Source of the DNA: Escherichia phage vB_EcoM-UFV11
DNA length: 64,000 bases
Sequence record: OP555982.1
Strand: one strand, 5' to 3'
Shown: one piece after another, positions 5,820 to 60,589 of the stretch
How positions within the stretch are numbered: position 1 is the first letter of the stretch
Layout of the letters: the number at the start of each line of letters is the position of its first letter
The notes under the pieces: generated by a model
Database searches by the model: none
What the model was told of the DNA's origin: nothing
Seen by the model: only the letters and a program-made list of their open reading frames with translations
Translations under genes and position numbers: made by a program

Positions 5820-6089
5820 TTAATTGAACAGTGGAGCGATGCGTTTCAGAAGAGTAGCAGCACCTTTAGCGAATTTTACATCATGAAAAACAGTTTCTTC
5901 TTCCGTTACAACACGAGCTTTAATGTTTTCACAATCCCAATTTTTGCGAACAATCTTCAAAAGCTGCAGTAAATCTTTACATTCAACAATATCGATAACA
6001 CATCCACGAGAATCTTCCATTATCGCACGATAACCGTAAGCCATACCATAATCGTTGAAAGATTGCTCGATGATAATTAAGTTTTCCAT
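5820..6089 (-). CDS. hypothetical protein
   Basis: ORF track starts at TTG; ATG at 6089 preceded by conserved leader TTGGAGAATAAAATG. Confidence 0.5.
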   Translation of the reverse strand: MENLIIIEQSFNDYGMAYGYRAIMEDSRGCVIDIVECKDLLQLLKIVRKNWDCENIKARVVTEEETVFHDVKFAKGAATLLKRIAPLFN

Positions 6090-6186
6090 TTTATTCTCCA
6101 AGTTATTTTCTGTATCAGTAGTTGATATTGATATAGTACCATAATCAACTACTGATGTATATAGTTTTATGAAAAAATTTTAAACT

Positions 6187-7735: not shown

Positions 7736-7765
7736 ATAATACCATAACTAACCGAGGAAGTAAAC
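7736..7765 (-). promoter_or_regulatory. T4-type early promoter
   Basis: minus strand GTTTAC-N18-TATTAT upstream of 7708. Confidence 0.45.
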
Positions 7766-17354: not shown

Positions 17355-17519
17355 TTACTCTTCTTTTTCTTTAGATTCCTCTTTTTTCTTTTTAGGAATC
17401 TGTTCAGGACCTTTATTTACTACAGCACCTGATGTTGTTCCAGTAGAGATATTTTCAGGATTACCACCTGAATCTCCAGCAACCATATCTTCTTTAATAA
17501 ATTCTTTATATGTTTTCAT
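17355..17519 (-). CDS. small protein with internal-protein-like N-terminus MKTYKEFIKE
   Basis: 55-aa ORF, Lys/Glu-rich tail, stop 3 nt before gene 61 ATG. Confidence 0.45.
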   Translation of the reverse strand: MKTYKEFIKEDMVAGDSGGNPENISTGTTSGAVVNKGPEQIPKKKKEESKEKEE

Positions 17520-17520
17520 A

Positions 17521-17877
17521 TTAACCTCTATTCATAAAAGCATTAAAAATTTGGTCATCAATCGATGGAATAGCAACTTTTTCTGCATCATTTAGCAAAT
17601 CATTAATTTCATCAGATAGCATAACACATGTACCTTTATTTCCTGTAATTGTTACTGCACAATTACGAACGTTTTCTTTATTAAATTTTAGGTTAATATT
17701 TTCGTAATGAAAATCCTTTAATGCTGAATATATTTTTAAAATAAAATTGTCTTTTACTACAATAAACCCAACCTCACTATTAAAACGTGGTTCATGGAAA
17801 CTGTAATAAACCTTTTCATCTATAAAATCGTATGAAATTTTTTCCATTTTTAAATATGAAAATTCAGAACTATACAT
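17521..17877 (-). CDS. hypothetical protein, paralog of 17879-18520
   Basis: 118-aa ORF; C-terminus SIDDQIFNAFMNRG shared with neighbour. Confidence 0.55.
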   Translation of the reverse strand: MYSSEFSYLKMEKISYDFIDEKVYYSFHEPRFNSEVGFIVVKDNFILKIYSALKDFHYENINLKFNKENVRNCAVTITGNKGTCVMLSDEINDLLNDAEKVAIPSIDDQIFNAFMNRG

Positions 17878-24782: not shown

Positions 24783-25019
24783 TCAAATACAAGTAGTAAT
24801 TACTCCAGTAGTGCTTACACAGGTATTACCTAATTGAACACCCAACGTTCCATTAGTATTCATATGAAGATTATCATCAATTTTTGTTGATACTTTACCA
24901 TTCATGTGAATAATAGTATTAGATTCAATCACATTCTGAGTGTCATTTTCAATATCAATAAATGGAACAGTTGCTAATGCAACTAAACACACTGCTAAAC
25001 AACCATAAACAATTTTCAT
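24783..25019 (-). CDS. hypothetical secreted/membrane protein
   Basis: ATG at 25019 after conserved leader GGAGAATAAAATG; N-terminal hydrophobic segment. Confidence 0.5.
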   Translation of the reverse strand: MKIVYGCLAVCLVALATVPFIDIENDTQNVIESNTIIHMNGKVSTKIDDNLHMNTNGTLGVQLGNTCVSTTGVITTCI

Positions 25020-25053
25020 TTTATTCTCCAAATCCGTATCAGTTGATAGTTGT

Positions 25054-25083
25054 ATAGTACCATGGAAGAACGGGGATGTAAAT
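25054..25083 (-). promoter_or_regulatory. T4-type early promoter with conserved leader
   Basis: minus strand ATTTACATCCCCGTTCTTCCATGGTACTAT; 42-bp leader identical to 52671-52712. Confidence 0.5.
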
Positions 25084-25170
25084 AGTTTTGTGAAAAAATT
25101 TTTAATGAATTTACAGGACCTAGAATCATCTATTTTTCCTAAGTATAGATTTATATTACTTGTATGAAAA

Positions 25171-25188
25171 AGGGACCCGGAGGTCCCT
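25171..25188 (-). terminator. hairpin GGGACC-UCCG-GGUCCC
   Basis: perfect 6-bp stem downstream of gene 43 stop. Confidence 0.5.
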
Positions 25189-25200
25189 AGATTTATTCTA

Positions 25201-27897
25201 TCAGCCAAACAGGAAGTCTAACGAAGCTTTTTCCTCATAGTCCATACCTGCCGATTCACACATGCCCGCAAGCGGTTTAACAAACGATTTTTGGAACAAA
25301 GTTGAGTAGTCAATCCAAGATAGTACGTCAGAACGAATTTCTTTTGGAAGTTCCGTACCCGATGGCCAAGCAATGCACTTGTCACCAAATGGATTTCCCT
25401 CACGTAACGGAAGAACCATTACCTTATTTCCATCCAAAATTGGAGCTACACCTAAACCGCTAACAGCTCGACGATAAGTTAGCACCCCACGAATATGGAA
25501 CGGGCATTTAAACCCTGGCCAACCTTTATCGTCATATTTCGCTATATCGTTCGCGGTTTTTACTTCAGCAATAACTTTATAGTCAAGTTGACGGTATTCT
25601 TTCTCAAAGTTCTTATAGTATTCTTGGACAGACTCTTCGCCTTCCTGAAGAATACGACGAATACTTTCTTCGAGAGCTTCTTGCACTGCTTTTGGTGTTG
25701 AACTCTGCTGAGTTTCCATACCCATGATTTTTAGATGTGGTTCAGCGAATCGCTTATCTTCCATATCATAAACGTTCAGAGCATAACGCTTTTTCGCTTT
25801 CCAAAATCCACCAACGCCCTTTGAACCAAGTGGAGGGCAAGAAATAGCTTCACGGTCCATATGCATCAGATGCTCGCGGTTATTCATATAATCACATAAC
25901 TCACGATATGCAACATCAATCATAGGTTCCATCTTTTTCTTACCGAACTGATTCATGAATTCAACTAAATCGTTCTGCTCTTTGAATCGGTCAAGACCAA
26001 CTTTTTCAATAACTTTATCTACACAAACATATACCGAATCAGTATCACCTGCTGCAATGAAATCTTCGCCATTAGTTCCGCACACTTTATTCAGATACTC
26101 ATTAATTTTACGAGCAATCCACTGAATACCAACTTGGCCGAAAATTGTGATAGCAGTAGCATTTCGCAAATCATAGTAACGGAAATGAATATTACCAAGA
26201 GCACCATAAAGACTGTTAATAAGAATTTTACGGTTCAGCTGATTTGTGTTAGCAAGTGTAGCTGCTTTTTCACATTCTTCAATCAAACTATTGAGAACAG
26301 ATTCAGTGTAATTCGATAATTCATTTAAGAAATCATCGCTGAACTTAACATATCGTTCAACTTCTGGTTTAGTTGAACAAGACCCTGCACCTTTCATAAT
26401 AATCTTTTTAATAGCTTCGGCATTCATTTCTTCAGCGAACATTTTCTTTTTCCAATCTTTACGCTGGAAAAATACTTTAGCGATTTCCTTTGGAATGATA
26501 CCTTCTTGATGCTTATCATACATCCATCCATTCGGAGAACAAGAATATTCATCACTTGGCTTAGGAGCTGTTCCTGCGATATATTCATGAATTGGATGAA
26601 CTTTAAACTGACCACGAATAGTTTCAGGACTAATGTTAACCTGGCGAATAATGCTCGGATACAGAGACGTCAAGTCAAAACTCATAATATATCGACGAGC
26701 AATTGGTTTAGGTTCAAACACAAATGCACCCGGAAAACTCTGTTTAACGTGTGAACCTTGTTGAGGAATAACCTTATGTTCACCTTTCAATGAGTTAAAA
26801 ATAATAGCATCCCAAGTTTTAATAGGACTCATTACACCAGAAAAAGGCATTTTAGCGTAATAAGACATACTTAAAACTAGATCAATAAACCCACGAATTT
26901 TATCAATTGCTTGAACTGATTCTACGTCAATGATGTTATAACTAATGTATCGTTGATGATTAGTCTCACGAAGTTTATTAATAGGACCGTCGTATGGTAA
27001 TTTACCTTTTTTGGTTTCATGCTGAGCAACTGATTCCAAAGAGAATGACGGCAAATTAGTAAATGCGAATTTCTTATACAAATCTAAATAATCAAGAATA
27101 GATACGCCATCAATAGAATAAATTTCTTTGCTACCGTACATATTTTGGATAAGTTTAGATTTTACTCGACCGATTGGAGAGAAGCGTTTCATACTGCGTT
27201 CACCAAGAACCATTTTAACGCGATTCATGATATACGGAACGTCAAATCCCTCAATATTCCAACCAGTAAAAATAGCAGGTCGTTTCTGTTCCCAGAGATT
27301 GATATATTCCATGAGCATATCACGCTCATTATCGAATGGCATATAAATTACTCGGTCAAGAATTTCTTGAGGAACTTCATCACCACCTTCACAGTCAAGC
27401 TTAGCAGCTAACTTTGCATCCCATTTTGATACTGAACCGTACATTGAATTCAAAAGGTCGAAAACATAAAAACGATCATCAATTGAATCATAATGAGTGA
27501 TAGCATCAATTTCATATTCTGCTTTCATTGGGTCAGGAAATTTATCACCAGTAACCTCAATGTCACAGTTAGCTACACGAACAAATTTTCGGTCATAAAC
27601 AATTTCTGAACCGTATGTATCACTGATATAAGCGAGTTTAAAATCGTTCATACCGAGAGCTTCGAGACCGATGTCTTCCATTCGCTTCATCCAATCTCGA
27701 GCATCTTTCATTGATGGAAATTTTTGAGGAGCGCAATTTTTACCATAGATGTCTTTGTATTTTGACTCTTCCTTACAATGCCTAAACATAGTTGGAAGAT
27801 ATTCTACTTCACGAGTACGTTCCTTTCCGTTTTCATCAATATAACGTTCAACAATGTTATTTCCGACTGTTTCAATAGAGATATAAAATTCTTTCAT
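25201..27897 (-). CDS. 43: DNA polymerase gp43 (898 aa, family B)
   Basis: 898-aa ORF; exonuclease and polymerase motifs (YGDTDS). Confidence 0.97.
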   Translation of the reverse strand: MKEFYISIETVGNNIVERYIDENGKERTREVEYLPTMFRHCKEESKYKDIYGKNCAPQKFPSMKDARDWMKRMEDIGLEALGMNDFKLAYISDTYGSEIVYDRKFVRVANCDIEVTGDKFPDPMKAEYEIDAITHYDSIDDRFYVFDLLNSMYGSVSKWDAKLAAKLDCEGGDEVPQEILDRVIYMPFDNERDMLMEYINLWEQKRPAIFTGWNIEGFDVPYIMNRVKMVLGERSMKRFSPIGRVKSKLIQNMYGSKEIYSIDGVSILDYLDLYKKFAFTNLPSFSLESVAQHETKKGKLPYDGPINKLRETNHQRYISYNIIDVESVQAIDKIRGFIDLVLSMSYYAKMPFSGVMSPIKTWDAIIFNSLKGEHKVIPQQGSHVKQSFPGAFVFEPKPIARRYIMSFDLTSLYPSIIRQVNISPETIRGQFKVHPIHEYIAGTAPKPSDEYSCSPNGWMYDKHQEGIIPKEIAKVFFQRKDWKKKMFAEEMNAEAIKKIIMKGAGSCSTKPEVERYVKFSDDFLNELSNYTESVLNSLIEECEKAATLANTNQLNRKILINSLYGALGNIHFRYYDLRNATAITIFGQVGIQWIARKINEYLNKVCGTNGEDFIAAGDTDSVYVCVDKVIEKVGLDRFKEQNDLVEFMNQFGKKKMEPMIDVAYRELCDYMNNREHLMHMDREAISCPPLGSKGVGGFWKAKKRYALNVYDMEDKRFAEPHLKIMGMETQQSSTPKAVQEALEESIRRILQEGEESVQEYYKNFEKEYRQLDYKVIAEVKTANDIAKYDDKGWPGFKCPFHIRGVLTYRRAVSGLGVAPILDGNKVMVLPLREGNPFGDKCIAWPSGTELPKEIRSDVLSWIDYSTLFQKSFVKPLAGMCESAGMDYEEKASLDFLFG

Positions 27898-48293: not shown

Positions 48294-48323
48294 ATTATAC
48301 CACATCCTTGTGGCGAAGTAAAC
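48294..48323 (-). promoter_or_regulatory. T4-type early promoter
   Basis: minus strand GTTTACTTCGCCACAAGGATGTGGTATAAT, near-identical to the promoter at 2428-2458. Confidence 0.6.
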
Positions 48324-50708: not shown

Positions 50709-51236
50709 TTATGCGAGTACCGTCTTTAACCGTTCTTCAAACTTCCGAAGAGTATTCTGGCGTTCAGCTCTTTGCTTTTTGTAAGTTTCAATACGCTCTG
50801 AAATGAGAGTGTATCGTTCATTTACTGATTCTTTCATAAAATCAGGAATTTCACGAGAAGCTTTAATCTCGTCAAATTTATCAATAACAGCTTGCTCTTC
50901 AGCAATTAAGTTATCATACATCAAAATATCTTTCTTGATGAACTCAATATCTTCTTGAGTTACACGAGATAATTTAAATGCTTTATCCTTTTTGTACTGT
51001 TCGTTAGTATCACGAGACCAGTGTAATGTACGATTTTTATTCGTATTCTTATAAATTTCTACAATACCAATATCATCAATAATAACGATCCAATTCCAAC
51101 GGGATTTGTAAATTTGTCCTCCATCAACTGTGATTTCACCTCCGATTGAGATGTCATTAAAGAACTTGCTTTGTGCTTCTGATTTAAATTTACCATCGTT
51201 GTAATTTACCAAGTTGAAAATATCTTTAGCGTTCAT
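50709..51236 (-). CDS. hypothetical protein
   Basis: ATG at 51236 downstream of promoter; ORF-track start is inside the promoter leader. Confidence 0.5.
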   Translation of the reverse strand: MNAKDIFNLVNYNDGKFKSEAQSKFFNDISIGGEITVDGGQIYKSRWNWIVIIDDIGIVEIYKNTNKNRTLHWSRDTNEQYKKDKAFKLSRVTQEDIEFIKKDILMYDNLIAEEQAVIDKFDEIKASREIPDFMKESVNERYTLISERIETYKKQRAERQNTLRKFEERLKTVLA

Positions 51237-51265
51237 TTTCTGTTCCTCCGTAGTTGATAGTTGTA

Positions 51266-51295
51266 TAGTACCACAGAGGAACAGTCTTGTAAACA
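51266..51295 (-). promoter_or_regulatory. T4-type early promoter
   Basis: minus strand GTTTACAAGACTGTTCCTCTGTGGTACTAT. Confidence 0.5.
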
Positions 51296-51700: not shown

Positions 51701-52669
51701 TTATTTCAGAAGAGTAACCTCAGCGATTTCTTCCCAACCGTTTTTGTCGGTCATAATAAAGTCAGCAAGATAAAGAGCAGTACGCAGTGAAACATTGCGT
51801 AAACGATTAACATTGACTTTCATCCATGATAATGCTTTATAAGTTTCTTCATCAGAAAGACCGCGCTTTTGCATCATGTCAGTTGAAAGAATAACATCTT
51901 CAACCCTGACCATAATTTCTTCATTAGTGTGAACACCCAAATCCAAATAAACTGAGCGGGACACTAATGCTTGTAAATGTGGAGCAAGTTTAGTACCACG
52001 GTCTAATTCGCGGTCAATGTCAACGTTTGTGATAAAAACAATCGTTCCTTTAAATTCAAACTCACGCTCAATGCCTTTTTCTTCTAAGTAAGAAGATGCA
52101 GTGCTCCAGCAGACTTTACGGGTCTCTCCAGTGTCCAGAGCAGCTTTCAGAAGATTAAGAATGTCCATATCAGAGAAAACATCCACATCATCAATCAAAA
52201 GGACAGAATTCTCTTCACGATTATTCCAAAGCTGCTCATAAAGACCAATACCAGAGATTTTACCATTAATGCTTTTATATTCAATGTATCCAATATCATT
52301 TGCTTTATTTAAAGCTTTATCTAAAGAATACGTTTTACCAATACCCGCCGCACCAGAGATAATTAATGAACGAATGTTTCCGTTAATAATACCATTCGTC
52401 ATCATTCCCATAACATTAAATCTTTTATTAATGCGGGTTTTCATATCTTCATATGATTCTTTAACTTCTTCAACTTTTACACCATCATATGAAATGTCTG
52501 ATTTGTAAACCCAAACACCGCGACGTTTACCGTCAATTTCAACAAAAACTTTACCATCTCCTTGTGCATCTACTGGGGCATTATCAGGGAACCACTCACC
52601 TAAGAGTTCAAAAGTTCCAGAGATTTCTTTGCCAAAGTAGATACCCTTATTGATAGTTACAGTTTTCAT
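51701..52669 (-). CDS. P-loop NTPase (AAA-like)
   Basis: ATG at 52669 after leader GGAGAATAAAATG; Walker A GAAGIGKT, Walker B VLLIDDVD. Confidence 0.6.
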   Translation of the reverse strand: MKTVTINKGIYFGKEISGTFELLGEWFPDNAPVDAQGDGKVFVEIDGKRRGVWVYKSDISYDGVKVEEVKESYEDMKTRINKRFNVMGMMTNGIINGNIRSLIISGAAGIGKTYSLDKALNKANDIGYIEYKSINGKISGIGLYEQLWNNREENSVLLIDDVDVFSDMDILNLLKAALDTGETRKVCWSTASSYLEEKGIEREFEFKGTIVFITNVDIDRELDRGTKLAPHLQALVSRSVYLDLGVHTNEEIMVRVEDVILSTDMMQKRGLSDEETYKALSWMKVNVNRLRNVSLRTALYLADFIMTDKNGWEEIAEVTLLK

Positions 52670-52703
52670 TTTATTCTCCAAATCCGTATCAGTTGATAGT
52701 TGT

Positions 52704-52733
52704 ATAGTACCATAAAGCTTTATGCTTGTAAAC
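52704..52733 (-). promoter_or_regulatory. T4-type early promoter with conserved leader
   Basis: minus strand GTTTACAAGCATAAAGCTTTATGGTACTAT. Confidence 0.55.
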
Positions 52734-52764
52734 TGTTTTGTGAAAAAATTTTTGAAATAAAAAA

Positions 52765-52782
52765 GGGAGCCCGAAGGCTCCC
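52765..52782 (-). terminator. hairpin GGGAGCC-UUCG-GGCUCCC plus U-run
   Basis: 7-bp stem, UUCG loop, TTTTTT after it on minus strand. Confidence 0.6.
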
Positions 52783-52784
52783 TA

Positions 52785-53798
52785 TCATTTATAATAACTT
52801 CGGTGGTTTTCAAGATAGACCTTCTCAAGGAAGTCATCCCAGAAACCCATGTCTACTTTTTGCTGCATACCGTTCTTAGAAGCTTCAGTAGATGCTGCTT
52901 CTACTTGATCGACCACATCTTCCAAAAACTCTTGAACTGTTTTAAATGGATGTTTACCCAACTTCACGTCGAGAATAAATGGAGCGTCTTGAAGTGGATA
53001 AACTAAGTCACCAGTTTTGTAAATTTCCAATAGTTGAAGTCCACCACGACAGGCATGGCTCAGAGCTTTCCAGTCAATACCTTCATTGGCTTCGGCCTTA
53101 CGAGCACGTTCACCATATTCAGCATCTAATTTGTTCAGTGACTGCTTAAGCTCAATAAGAGAAAGCGTTGTCTGATATTTACGACCCAACACAGTGTAGA
53201 ACGTTTGTGGGCCTGTTTTCTCATGATTATGGAACACCCATTCACAGAATTCGTTTTCTGGAAGACGATGCTTAATATCTTCAATTTTAGTGCGACGTTG
53301 TCCTTGTGTTCCATCTTCTCGGTAGACATTCCGTTGATCAGGAATTTGATTAACTACTTTCAACACATCACGTAATGCAGCCAAACGAGAACCCTTGACA
53401 CCGTATTTAGAAGCTTGCTTGCGAACATATCCTAAATAGGATTTCATGTTAGTCGTATAAAAACGAGAACGATTGTCTTGAATAAACTTCCACACATCAG
53501 GCAAATCAGATTTAACCACTAGTTCAGGTGGAGTGTGAAGCATATCCAATGCTACAGTTTCACCATCTGCTGCTAATTTAAAGAAATACTTAAGACTATA
53601 CAATTCGTGGTCAATATCATCTTTAGTGTTTTTAGATGATGTGTTGTTAGTGTTTTTACTCATGTGCTCTTTGACATTTCCAATAAGAATATCGCGAGCA
53701 GGAGGAACAAAGATTTCTTTAAAATCTACATCAGATTCTGGAGTAGAAGTTCCATAAAGATGACTACCAAAATAGCTTTTCATTACTGTTTTCATCAT
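52785..53798 (-). CDS. putative polymerase-beta-type nucleotidyltransferase
   Basis: 337-aa ORF; N-terminal GS-x11-DVD motif (GSHLYGTSTPESDVDF), later acidic residue near LDMLH, helical C-terminal domain. Confidence 0.5.
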   Translation of the reverse strand: MMKTVMKSYFGSHLYGTSTPESDVDFKEIFVPPARDILIGNVKEHMSKNTNNTSSKNTKDDIDHELYSLKYFFKLAADGETVALDMLHTPPELVVKSDLPDVWKFIQDNRSRFYTTNMKSYLGYVRKQASKYGVKGSRLAALRDVLKVVNQIPDQRNVYREDGTQGQRRTKIEDIKHRLPENEFCEWVFHNHEKTGPQTFYTVLGRKYQTTLSLIELKQSLNKLDAEYGERARKAEANEGIDWKALSHACRGGLQLLEIYKTGDLVYPLQDAPFILDVKLGKHPFKTVQEFLEDVVDQVEAASTEASKNGMQQKVDMGFWDDFLEKVYLENHRSYYK

Positions 53799-55511: not shown

Positions 55512-55784
55512 TTAAATGACGTTTTCAATAAAATTCTGAAGCTTTGTGTGAGCATCAACCATGATTTTCATTTCTTCTTTGGCGAAAGCTGTACCTCTTT
55601 CCCGAGAAGAACACTCATAGTCAGAAACTGCATTAGCATATTCTTCAATTAGTTTCATTAAAAACATCTGCTTTTCAGTTTTCATTATTCCACCTAATCC
55701 CCGAGAAGAACACTCATAGTCAGAAACTGCATTAGCATATTCTTCAATTAGTTTCATTAAAAACATCTGCTTTTCAGTTTTCAT
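55512..55784 (-). CDS. hypothetical protein with internal 33-aa tandem duplication
   Basis: 90-aa ORF; MKTEKQMFLMKLIEEYANAVSDYECSSR occurs twice. Confidence 0.5.
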   Translation of the reverse strand: MKTEKQMFLMKLIEEYANAVSDYECSSRGLGGIMKTEKQMFLMKLIEEYANAVSDYECSSRERGTAFAKEEMKIMVDAHTKLQNFIENVI

Positions 55785-55798
55785 TATTCCACCTAATC
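55601..55798 (-). repeat. perfect 99-bp tandem direct duplication (2 copies)
   Basis: 55601-55699 identical to 55700-55798; each copy carries SD GGTGGA plus ATG. Confidence 0.85.
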
Positions 55799-56174: not shown

Positions 56175-56362
56175 TATTCCACCACATATGAAAGAGAGAA
56201 TATTGCACATGCCATGTGAGTTGCAACTTCATCACACATATTATAACGTTTCTTAAGAAGTTCTACAAGTTTTTCACTAGTAACTTCATCCATGTTGACG
56301 AAAAAATCACCATTAATGATGACGTAGATATTTCCTTCTTGATTGAGTGCTTCAATTTTCAT
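56174..56362 (-). CDS. hypothetical protein
   Basis: ATG at 56362 with SD GAGGAG; ORF-track start lies within promoter. Confidence 0.45.
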
Positions 56363-56390
56363 GATGTTCTCCTCTTTATCCGATAGTTGT

Positions 56391-56420
56391 ATAGTATAAC
56401 AGCTCAAACGGAAAGTAAAC
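56391..56420 (-). promoter_or_regulatory. T4-type early promoter
   Basis: minus strand GTTTACTTTCCGTTTGAGCTGTTATACTAT. Confidence 0.5.
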
Positions 56421-60100: not shown

Positions 60101-60562
60101 TCATTGAGTTTTAATTACTGCTTTAGAAGCCTTTCCTGGTAAACGACGACTGTTAATAATTGCCATCCTGCATTGAAGCGACGGGTCTTTGAACTTCGCA
60201 TTAGGTTTACAAACTGTAAATCCAAGCCAAAGATTTCCATCTGTGATTTCTAAACGTCCAGGACGATATTCAACCCCATCAATAAAATCCTCGTCAATGT
60301 CAGGACGCGGAGGCATACTCAGGAATTCATTAACTTCTAAAACATGGTCTTTTATTTTATGGAATAATTCAAAAACGTATGTCTCATCAATCTCCCGTTG
60401 AATTGCGCGATCAAGAAGATGTTGAGAATATTTTAGATGAAACGATGAGACCCCTGCTGCTTTTGATGCCTCACGAATCTCATTGTTAATTTGACGAAAC
60501 TCCGACTCAAAGTGACGACGAAGCTTATTTCGACGGATAAAAACTTCTGTGTTGATAGTCAT
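60101..60562 (-). CDS. regB: endoribonuclease RegB (153 aa)
   Basis: 153-aa ORF MTINTEVFIRRNKLRRHFESEFRQINNEIREASK. Confidence 0.9.
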   Translation of the reverse strand: MTINTEVFIRRNKLRRHFESEFRQINNEIREASKAAGVSSFHLKYSQHLLDRAIQREIDETYVFELFHKIKDHVLEVNEFLSMPPRPDIDEDFIDGVEYRPGRLEITDGNLWLGFTVCKPNAKFKDPSLQCRMAIINSRRLPGKASKAVIKTQ

Positions 60563-60589
60563 GTTATTCTCCTCTTAACTGATAGAAAA

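Follow-up and report, generated by a model that had tools for sequence, protein, structure and literature searches.

In the DNA analysed here, 64,000 nt of Escherichia phage vB_EcoM-UFV11 (OP555982.1; this whole stretch is called the window below), one string of about forty nucleotides stands in identical form before two unrelated genes, which raises the question of what the string does and why its copies are the same. The 3 kb around the repeat are 100% identical to Escherichia phage vB_EcoM-UFV09, and also to UFV05, UFV06 and UFV10 (Tequatrovirus, T4-like); the window corresponds to the first 64 kb of the UFV09 genome, with window coordinates equal to those of the record minus 1 up to ~55.7 kb and the window longer by 99 nt from there on. 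Since nearly all genes annotated in this region lie on the minus strand, the repeat has to be read as its reverse complement. Read in this direction, it is very probably the downstream half of a T4-type early promoter cassette of the promoter-early stem-loop (PeSL) kind, joined to a short 5' leader and reused before unrelated early genes. The feature as such is already known: it is the textbook early promoter and leader cassette of T4 and holds no surprise for a T4 specialist.

Extent and anatomy of the repeated cassette

The 43-nt form of the string occurs exactly twice in the window, at 25021-25063 (copy A) and 52671-52713 (copy B), and judged by 100 dinucleotide-preserving shuffles no occurrence is expected by chance. 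The first-pass annotation had described an identical 42-bp repeat at these two sites; the identity stands, its end coordinates were one base short, and the identical stretch is longer, amounting to 51 nt (25013-25063 = 52663-52713) with the start codon and AAAA inside, or to 55 nt when one mismatch is allowed. The block runs from the ATGG immediately 5' of the -10 hexamer to four bases past the ATG, spanning the extended -10 element, the predicted start site, the whole leader, the ribosome-binding site and the start codon. Upstream of it, the -35/UP parts (25075-25105 and 52725-52755) are similar without being identical, a similarity measured only by way of a third copy at 6154-6184 (identity to it 90% and 74%, respectively), and the spacers of the two copies differ. 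Twenty early-type promoters were recognised in the window; in their segments between -10 and ATG, the longest exact substring shared by a pair had a median length of 6 nt, against 43 nt for copies A and B and 19 and 15 nt for the runners-up, so this pair is a clear outlier that shares more than a promoter consensus. Chance as the origin of the repeat is ruled out by the shuffles and by this pairwise comparison.

The earlier description of the repeat as a promoter with its leader is borne out by the elements found in both copies, namely an A/T-rich tract, TTTACA, a 17-nt spacer, TGG and TACTAT, with a terminator-like hairpin further upstream and a start site that is predicted from the sequence (Table 1). 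The hairpins fold at -13.9 kcal/mol (z = -2.7) in copy A and at -17.7 kcal/mol (z = -4.1) in copy B and lie ~90 nt and ~31 nt upstream of the -35 element, respectively. The tract AAAAATTTTTTCACAAAAC is common to copies A (25103-25085) and B (52753-52735) and is present in most members of the family, and directly 5' of TTTACA copy B keeps the full GTTTACA, whereas in copy A an A replaces the G (ATTTACA). With the -10 element at its upstream border, the repeat includes the predicted start (~25047 and ~52697), and ~28 nt of the repeat would be part of the mRNA. It is from these elements that we infer promoter activity and the exact start site. At the equivalent site after gene 43, the GenBank record of phage fPS-65 carries a 'terminator' and a 'predicted early promoter', and the annotation of fPS-65 lists the small ORF that follows, the same as the 78-aa ORF behind copy A, as g048c.

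Table 1. Positions of the cassette features and of regB in the window, with promoter, leader and target sites as predicted
Feature	Position	Strand	Description
Copy A terminator-like hairpin after gene 43	25171..25188	minus	AGGGACC-TCCG-GGTCCCT then TTTTT; 7-bp stem, 5 G-C pairs
Copy A A/T-rich UP-like tract	25084..25103	minus	AAAAATTTTTTCACAAAACT; read from sequence
Copy A sigma-70-type early promoter core	25054..25082	minus	-35 TTTACA 25082-25077; 17-nt spacer between -35 and -10, ending in TGG (25062-25060); -10 TACTAT 25059-25054
Copy A predicted 5' leader	25020..25047	minus	+1 inferred from -10: A at 25047, 7 nt downstream
Copy A Shine-Dalgarno and perfect RegB/S1 11-nt target	25019..25029	minus	GGAGAATAAAA; last A = A of ATG (25019-25017)
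Copy A gene, 78-aa protein of unknown function	24783..25019	minus	phrog_4189, full length from residue 1
Copy B terminator-like hairpin after nrdC.11 homologue	52764..52783	minus	AGGGAGCC-TTCG-GGCTCCCT then TTTTTT
Copy B A/T-rich UP-like tract	52734..52753	minus	AAAAATTTTTTCACAAAACA; read from sequence
Copy B early promoter core	52704..52732	minus	-35 TTTACA 52732-52727; 17-nt spacer; TGG; -10 TACTAT 52709-52704
Copy B predicted 5' leader	52670..52697	minus	+1 ~52697; same sequence as copy A leader
Copy B Shine-Dalgarno and perfect RegB/S1 target	52669..52679	minus	GGAGAATAAAA; ATG = 52669-52667
Copy B gene, nrdC.10 homologue, 322 aa, AAA-ATPase-like	51701..52669	minus	phrog_1250, residues 1-322; weak AAA domain matches
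Variant cassette, 89-aa ORF (5820-6089)	6087..6162	minus	-35-like TATACA; TGG; TACTAT 6138-6133; longer leader; GGAGAATAAAATG 6099-6087
Variant cassette, nrdC.8 homologue	51234..51294	minus	same -10 and first 13 transcribed bases; other Shine-Dalgarno region ACGGAGGAACAGAAAATG
Variant cassette, mobD.5 homologue (phrog_3024)	56360..56420	minus	TACTAT then ACAACTATC, divergence after; without TGn
regB	60101..60562	minus	152/153 residues identical to T4 RegB (99%); Pfam REGB_T4 E = 1.4e-68

T4 early promoters are of the UP/-35/TGn/-10 type (Hinton 2010, PMC2988021), and those of imm.1, nrdC.10, nrdC.8, motA and ndd.6 have the same A/T-rich UP tract, (G)TTTAC(A/T), 17-nt spacer, TGn and TAnnnT -10 as the cassettes of the window, at the same position and in the same orientation before early genes. 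There is no essential difference between the two, apart from the additional 78-aa ORF ahead of imm.1 and the A for G at the -35 element mentioned above. For the PeSLs of PST/T4, Comeau 2014 describes an AT-rich region, a sigma-70-like TTTACW-N17-TAYWAT, a Shine-Dalgarno (SD) sequence with start codon on the 3' side and a stem-loop just 5' (PMC4122927). The cassettes analysed here have the same composite of stem-loop, AT-rich region, promoter, SD and start codon, fit TTTACW-N17-TAYWAT and show the same intergenic repetition beside ORFs that differ between close relatives, for which PeSLs have been proposed as substrates of modular shuffling (Arbiol 2010, PMC2839356; Comeau 2014, PMC4122927).

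In copy B, the nrdC.10 promoter, the spacer holds a 14-bp palindrome without mismatch (CATAAAGCTTTATG, 52724-52711, minus strand). PeSL-type stem-loops between -35 and -10 form a subclass described for RB49 and phi1, and the nrdC.10 palindrome may be one of this kind. Inverted repeats were also observed in the spacer or across the -10 of many other early-type promoters (TATGGT..ACCATA, CCACA..TGTGG and TGATGAGGTA..TACCTCATCA; examples are window 7736-7765, 2428-2457 and 48294-48323, minus strand, and record 70989, 130601 and 127189); these resemble other PeSL stem-loop subclasses.

Three close variants of the repeat had been reported in addition to the two copies. All of them exist, but only the variant at 6.1 kb has the ending GGAGAATAAAATG, the others keeping the -10 and the first 9-13 transcribed bases; the SD regions of the variants before the nrdC.8 and mobD.5 homologues differ from that of copies A and B. 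The UFV09 genome holds nine cassettes, in which TGGTACTAT is followed by starts of the nnnnCTATC type. Outside the window, MZ291552.2 has a third copy with identity over 45 nt (163972-164015), downstream of denB and before a 68-aa ORF, and related cassettes of the same record (~160148, ~143344 and ~66652) precede motA, a frd.3-like ORF and e.8. T4 has the same cassette set: its nrdC.10 is preceded by the same leader, identical to the 43-mer of the window, its imm.1 leader has an extra ACT as well as a G in AATGAAATG, and its leader downstream of denB has an extra ACT. A nearly identical cassette stands before e.8 in RB69 (genus Mosigvirus), and by comparison with T4, ZN18 and RB69 the family precedes at least 10 genes. 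An exact 21-mer scan of IMG/VR returned 21 copies in five T-even genomes before 8 different genes, motA included, and the 51-mer was found at 1467 places in 532 phage records, with a copy at least 99% identical in 256 records.

The leader, its predicted RegB site and the true gene starts

From the predicted start onwards, the leader reads AUCAACUGAUACGGAUUUGGAGAAUAAA and is followed by AUG (25019 and 52669). Folding of the leader RNA yielded nothing beyond a weak 4-bp hairpin (-0.9 kcal/mol), at an energy that shuffles match; the GGAG was unpaired in leader-only folds and partly paired in the 58-nt fold of copy A that includes coding sequence, which was again no better than shuffles. We reject a structured riboregulator on the ground that the leader folds are no more stable than shuffled sequence. 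A search of the whole window against Rfam at gathering thresholds returned no known RNA family, so no known cis-regulatory RNA is involved.

The suggestion that the leader may carry a shared regulatory site is well founded, as it ends in an exact RegB/S1 11-mer, GGAGAAUAAAA, and RegB itself is encoded in the window. According to the text of Durand 2006, in which all intergenic GGAG/U motifs of T4 were tested, efficient cleavage by RegB with ribosomal protein S1 needs an 11-nt single-stranded site, GGAGRAYARAA, the T4 optimum being the same GGAGAAUAAAA; the paper counts 24 efficiently cut sites in T4, and those named in its text comprise nrdC.8, 47.1, 55.2 and motB.2, with moderate cleavage at the nrdC.8 site and a GGAU that is cut at motB.2, equivalent to window ~7718-7706 (PMC1702504). 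In the window, GGAGAATAAAA is found exactly three times (25029-25019, 52679-52669 and 6099-6089, all on the minus strand; 0.13 expected), and all three sites belong to this leader family. As in the T4 targets described there and by Uzan and Miller 2010 (PMC1702504, PMC3014915), the match covers all 11 nt, is predicted to be unpaired in the leader alone and coincides with the SD sequence; the difference is that cleavage is here predicted from sequence, with a phage RegB that is 99% identical to the T4 enzyme. Sensitivity of these leaders to RegB is strongly supported by their sequence, and the cut itself would fall at GG^AG.

The ribosome-binding site of regB, GGAGAATAACATG (60560-60572, minus strand), is one base away from the optimal RegB/S1 11-mer. 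RegB regulates its own gene by cleaving the SD sequence of regB, and the near-optimal site is consistent with this published autoregulation.

Sensitivity of the leader to RegA is compatible with its sequence. RegA operators are A+U-rich and unstructured and have a 5' poly(A) tract that overlaps or abuts the AUG; they have no strict consensus, and SELEX yielded aaAAUUGUUAUGUAA (PMC3014915). AAUAAAAUGAAAA fits this description, which is too loose to discriminate. As a lead only, we note that the first codons of the 78-aa ORF (25003-25019, minus strand) read AUGAAAAUUGUUUAUGG and resemble the SELEX sequence.

These elements suggest a hypothetical course of early expression in which (i) host sigma-70 RNA polymerase would, just after infection, bind the UP-like tract, TTTACA and the extended -10 TGGTACTAT; (ii) transcription would start ~7 nt past the -10, at roughly 25047 and 52697; (iii) the product would carry an unstructured leader of ~28 nt, the last 11 nt of which (GGAGAAUAAAA) would serve as SD sequence and as optimal RegB/S1 target; (iv) strong translation in the first minutes would be ended by RegB, which would cut GG^AG and inactivate the message; and (v) the hairpin 5' of each promoter would terminate or attenuate transcription coming from the preceding gene.

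The genes behind the leader are indeed unrelated, since the five cassette genes (the 78-aa ORF, the nrdC.10, nrdC.8 and mobD.5 homologues and the 89-aa ORF) belong to five different PHROG families. The 78-aa ORF lies between gene 43 and imm.1, has a signal-peptide-like N-terminus and is without a T4 counterpart. In all five genes, the PHROG profile alignment places residue 1 at the post-leader ATG, and the T4 annotation has imm.1 and nrdC.10 begin at the leader's ATG. Because the genes start there, the longer read-through ORFs are artefacts, as the first-pass annotation had held of their N-termini: the mechanical ORFs 24783-25208 and 51701-52837 cross promoter and hairpin and share the pseudo-peptide GTIQLSTDTDLENKMK.

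The GenBank record places a 37-aa 'hypothetical protein', UXR08730.1, at window 25016-25129 (minus strand), across the UP tract, -35, -10 and leader of copy A; this CDS is probably a gene-caller artefact. If the repeat were coding, either as a shared N-terminal extension or as this 37-aa ORF, it would give peptides such as GTIQLSTDTDLENK, and the mechanical ORFs that span both copies as well as the annotated CDS would find their explanation. Such a reading is hardly credible in view of the profiles of the five downstream proteins, which begin after the leader, of the post-leader starts annotated for the two T4 genes, of the complete set of promoter, terminator and SD signals in the region, and of the terminator hairpin that the read-through frames would have to cross; we reject it on the profile starts at the ATG. 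The main value of the cassette, read as promoter and leader, lies in annotation: several small early genes receive their true start codons, the long read-through ORFs and, in all probability, the 37-aa CDS of the public record are exposed as artefacts, and a prediction can be made of which early messages are RegB-sensitive.

Why the copies are identical

The identity is most simply explained if a functional cassette was duplicated and its copies descend from one ancestor, with hardly a base free of a role; the roles assigned are those of extended -10, start region, unstructured leader, RegB/S1 site with SD sequence and start codon. The two copies of the window and the third one downstream of denB are on this account paralogues within the family; only 2-3 positions vary in it, and in this phage they have the same state at all three loci. 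The identity may instead reflect recent gene conversion, a copying of the nrdC.10 cassette to the gene 43-imm.1 and denB loci in this lineage, which we consider possible but doubtful. Such copying would fit the observation that the three corresponding T4 leaders differ while all three are identical in this phage, as well as the spacer downstream of gene 43, which reads tccccg here (as at e.8) and agactg in T4 (as at nrdC.8 and ndd), and recombination is known to be very active in T4-type phages (PMC1524935, PMC2839356). However, ACT/ACTACT is a simple slippage site that varies independently from locus to locus in five other genomes, AGTAAAATG marks the denB-locus copy in three genomes whereas the nrdC.10 copy is invariant, and the identity ends at functional borders (the TGG of the extended -10 and ATGAAAA), with spacers that still differ. 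In the copies compared from five IMG/VR genomes and T4, a small sample, locus-specific states persist across genomes, so orthology dominates over homogenisation within genomes and recent gene conversion is not required. The family as a whole is mosaic: one leader occurs with different spacers, and T4 and this phage have one spacer type at loci that differ between them, a pattern that agrees with occasional exchange among the copies.

Within the conserved early transcribed region, ACAACTATCAACT(ACT)GATAC, lies the inverted repeat TATCA..TGATA, and the region could in principle be an operator for a phage factor, for instance one that shuts off early promoters, or else a determinant of Alt stimulation, roles that even taken together we regard as very unlikely. 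CTATCAACT recurs at the same distance from TACTAT in 10 of the ~32 early-type promoters of the genome, in different surroundings, and is kept in RB69, and the TATCA/TGATA arms are kept with a loop of either AC or ACTAC; moreover, reviews call the shut-off of early promoters not understood and describe T4 early promoters with extra consensus regions (PMC3014915, PMC2988021). Yet the hairpin does not exceed shuffled sequence in stability, its downstream arm is wholly lost in two members (the nrdC.8 and mobD.5 variants), and the conservation is explained equally if the copies of a duplicated cassette share an ancestor and promoter escape exerts selection on the sequence transcribed first. We retain common descent of the functional cassette as the preferred account.

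Gene gain and loss at the leader's ATG

The leader had also been called a likely substrate for homologous recombination, with rearrangement junctions to be looked for at the repeats. This view holds for one side only: when this phage, T4 and ZN18 are compared (small differences ignored), at three loci the proximal junction is no more than a few bases away from the leader's ATG, but the distal partner is a microhomology of 5-10 nt and not a second full copy. At the gene 43 locus, T4 has the leader joined directly to imm.1, whereas in this phage the 78-aa ORF and 10 nt stand between the leader ATG and the ATGAAAAT of imm.1. Downstream of denB, three states share the cassette up to the ATG: leader-ORF68-ORF87 in this phage, leader-ORF87 with the hybrid GGAGAGTAAAATG in ZN18 and others, and, in T4, the leader fused to the final eight codons of ORF87. 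At the motB-cef locus, T4 retains the cassette and ATGGAAAA but has lost ~70 codons of the 89-aa ORF. The distal junctions have only ~5-10 nt in common with the leader (ATGAAAAT, TAAAATG, AAATGAAA and GAAAA).

In T4-like phages, PeSL cassettes have been proposed to border shuffled modules (PMC2839356). The present cases differ from that model in that only one end of each indel lies in the cassette, at the ATG, while the other end shows short microhomology, with no exchange between two flanking PeSLs; they are a better fit to microhomology-mediated deletion or insertion than to the PeSL-to-PeSL exchange, with excision of mini-circles, that was originally envisaged. We hypothesise that the cassette is a portable expression unit and that shuffled gene modules have their borders at such units, the mechanism of recombination being deduced from the junctions. 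The clustering of junctions at the ATG need not mark a mechanistic hotspot; it could also arise if selection favours those recombinants in which the next gene is still expressed. A bolder proposal would make the conserved 3' end of the cassette, formed by the RegB/S1 site, the ATG and the AAA behind it, a preferred, perhaps enzyme-assisted, point of insertion and deletion, that is, an integron-like 'expression socket', and, in a related idea, the palindromic transcript start a shut-off operator; we judge this unlikely. If it applied, ORFs would come and go exactly at the start codon, and newcomers would be expressed early at once and silenced by RegB. The three T-even genomes provide a few clean examples of whole genes gained or lost exactly at the start codon behind a common promoter and leader; these examples support the published module-border idea for T4-like phages and suggest that the usual partner is a short A-rich SD-ATG microhomology and not full cassette-to-cassette homology.

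Repeats of other kinds also occur in the window. A perfect 99-nt tandem duplication occupies 55601-55798 (units 55601-55699 and 55700-55798) and is missing from MZ291552.2 and from the 12 best public relatives, in which a 501-nt query aligned in two pieces that together cover 402 nt. On the minus strand its 33 codons keep the reading frame, and a small mobD.2a-like ORF, whose SD sequence, ATG and first 29 codons are thereby present twice, grows from 57 to 90 aa; a recent duplication, a variant of the assembly and an edited sequence are all conceivable origins. Short direct repeats of 48-49 nt, 90-92% identical, lie at 17490-17537, 17517-17565/17875-17923 and 63213-63260/63547-63594. They span the starts of neighbouring small minus-strand ORFs and probably reflect tandemly duplicated small genes.
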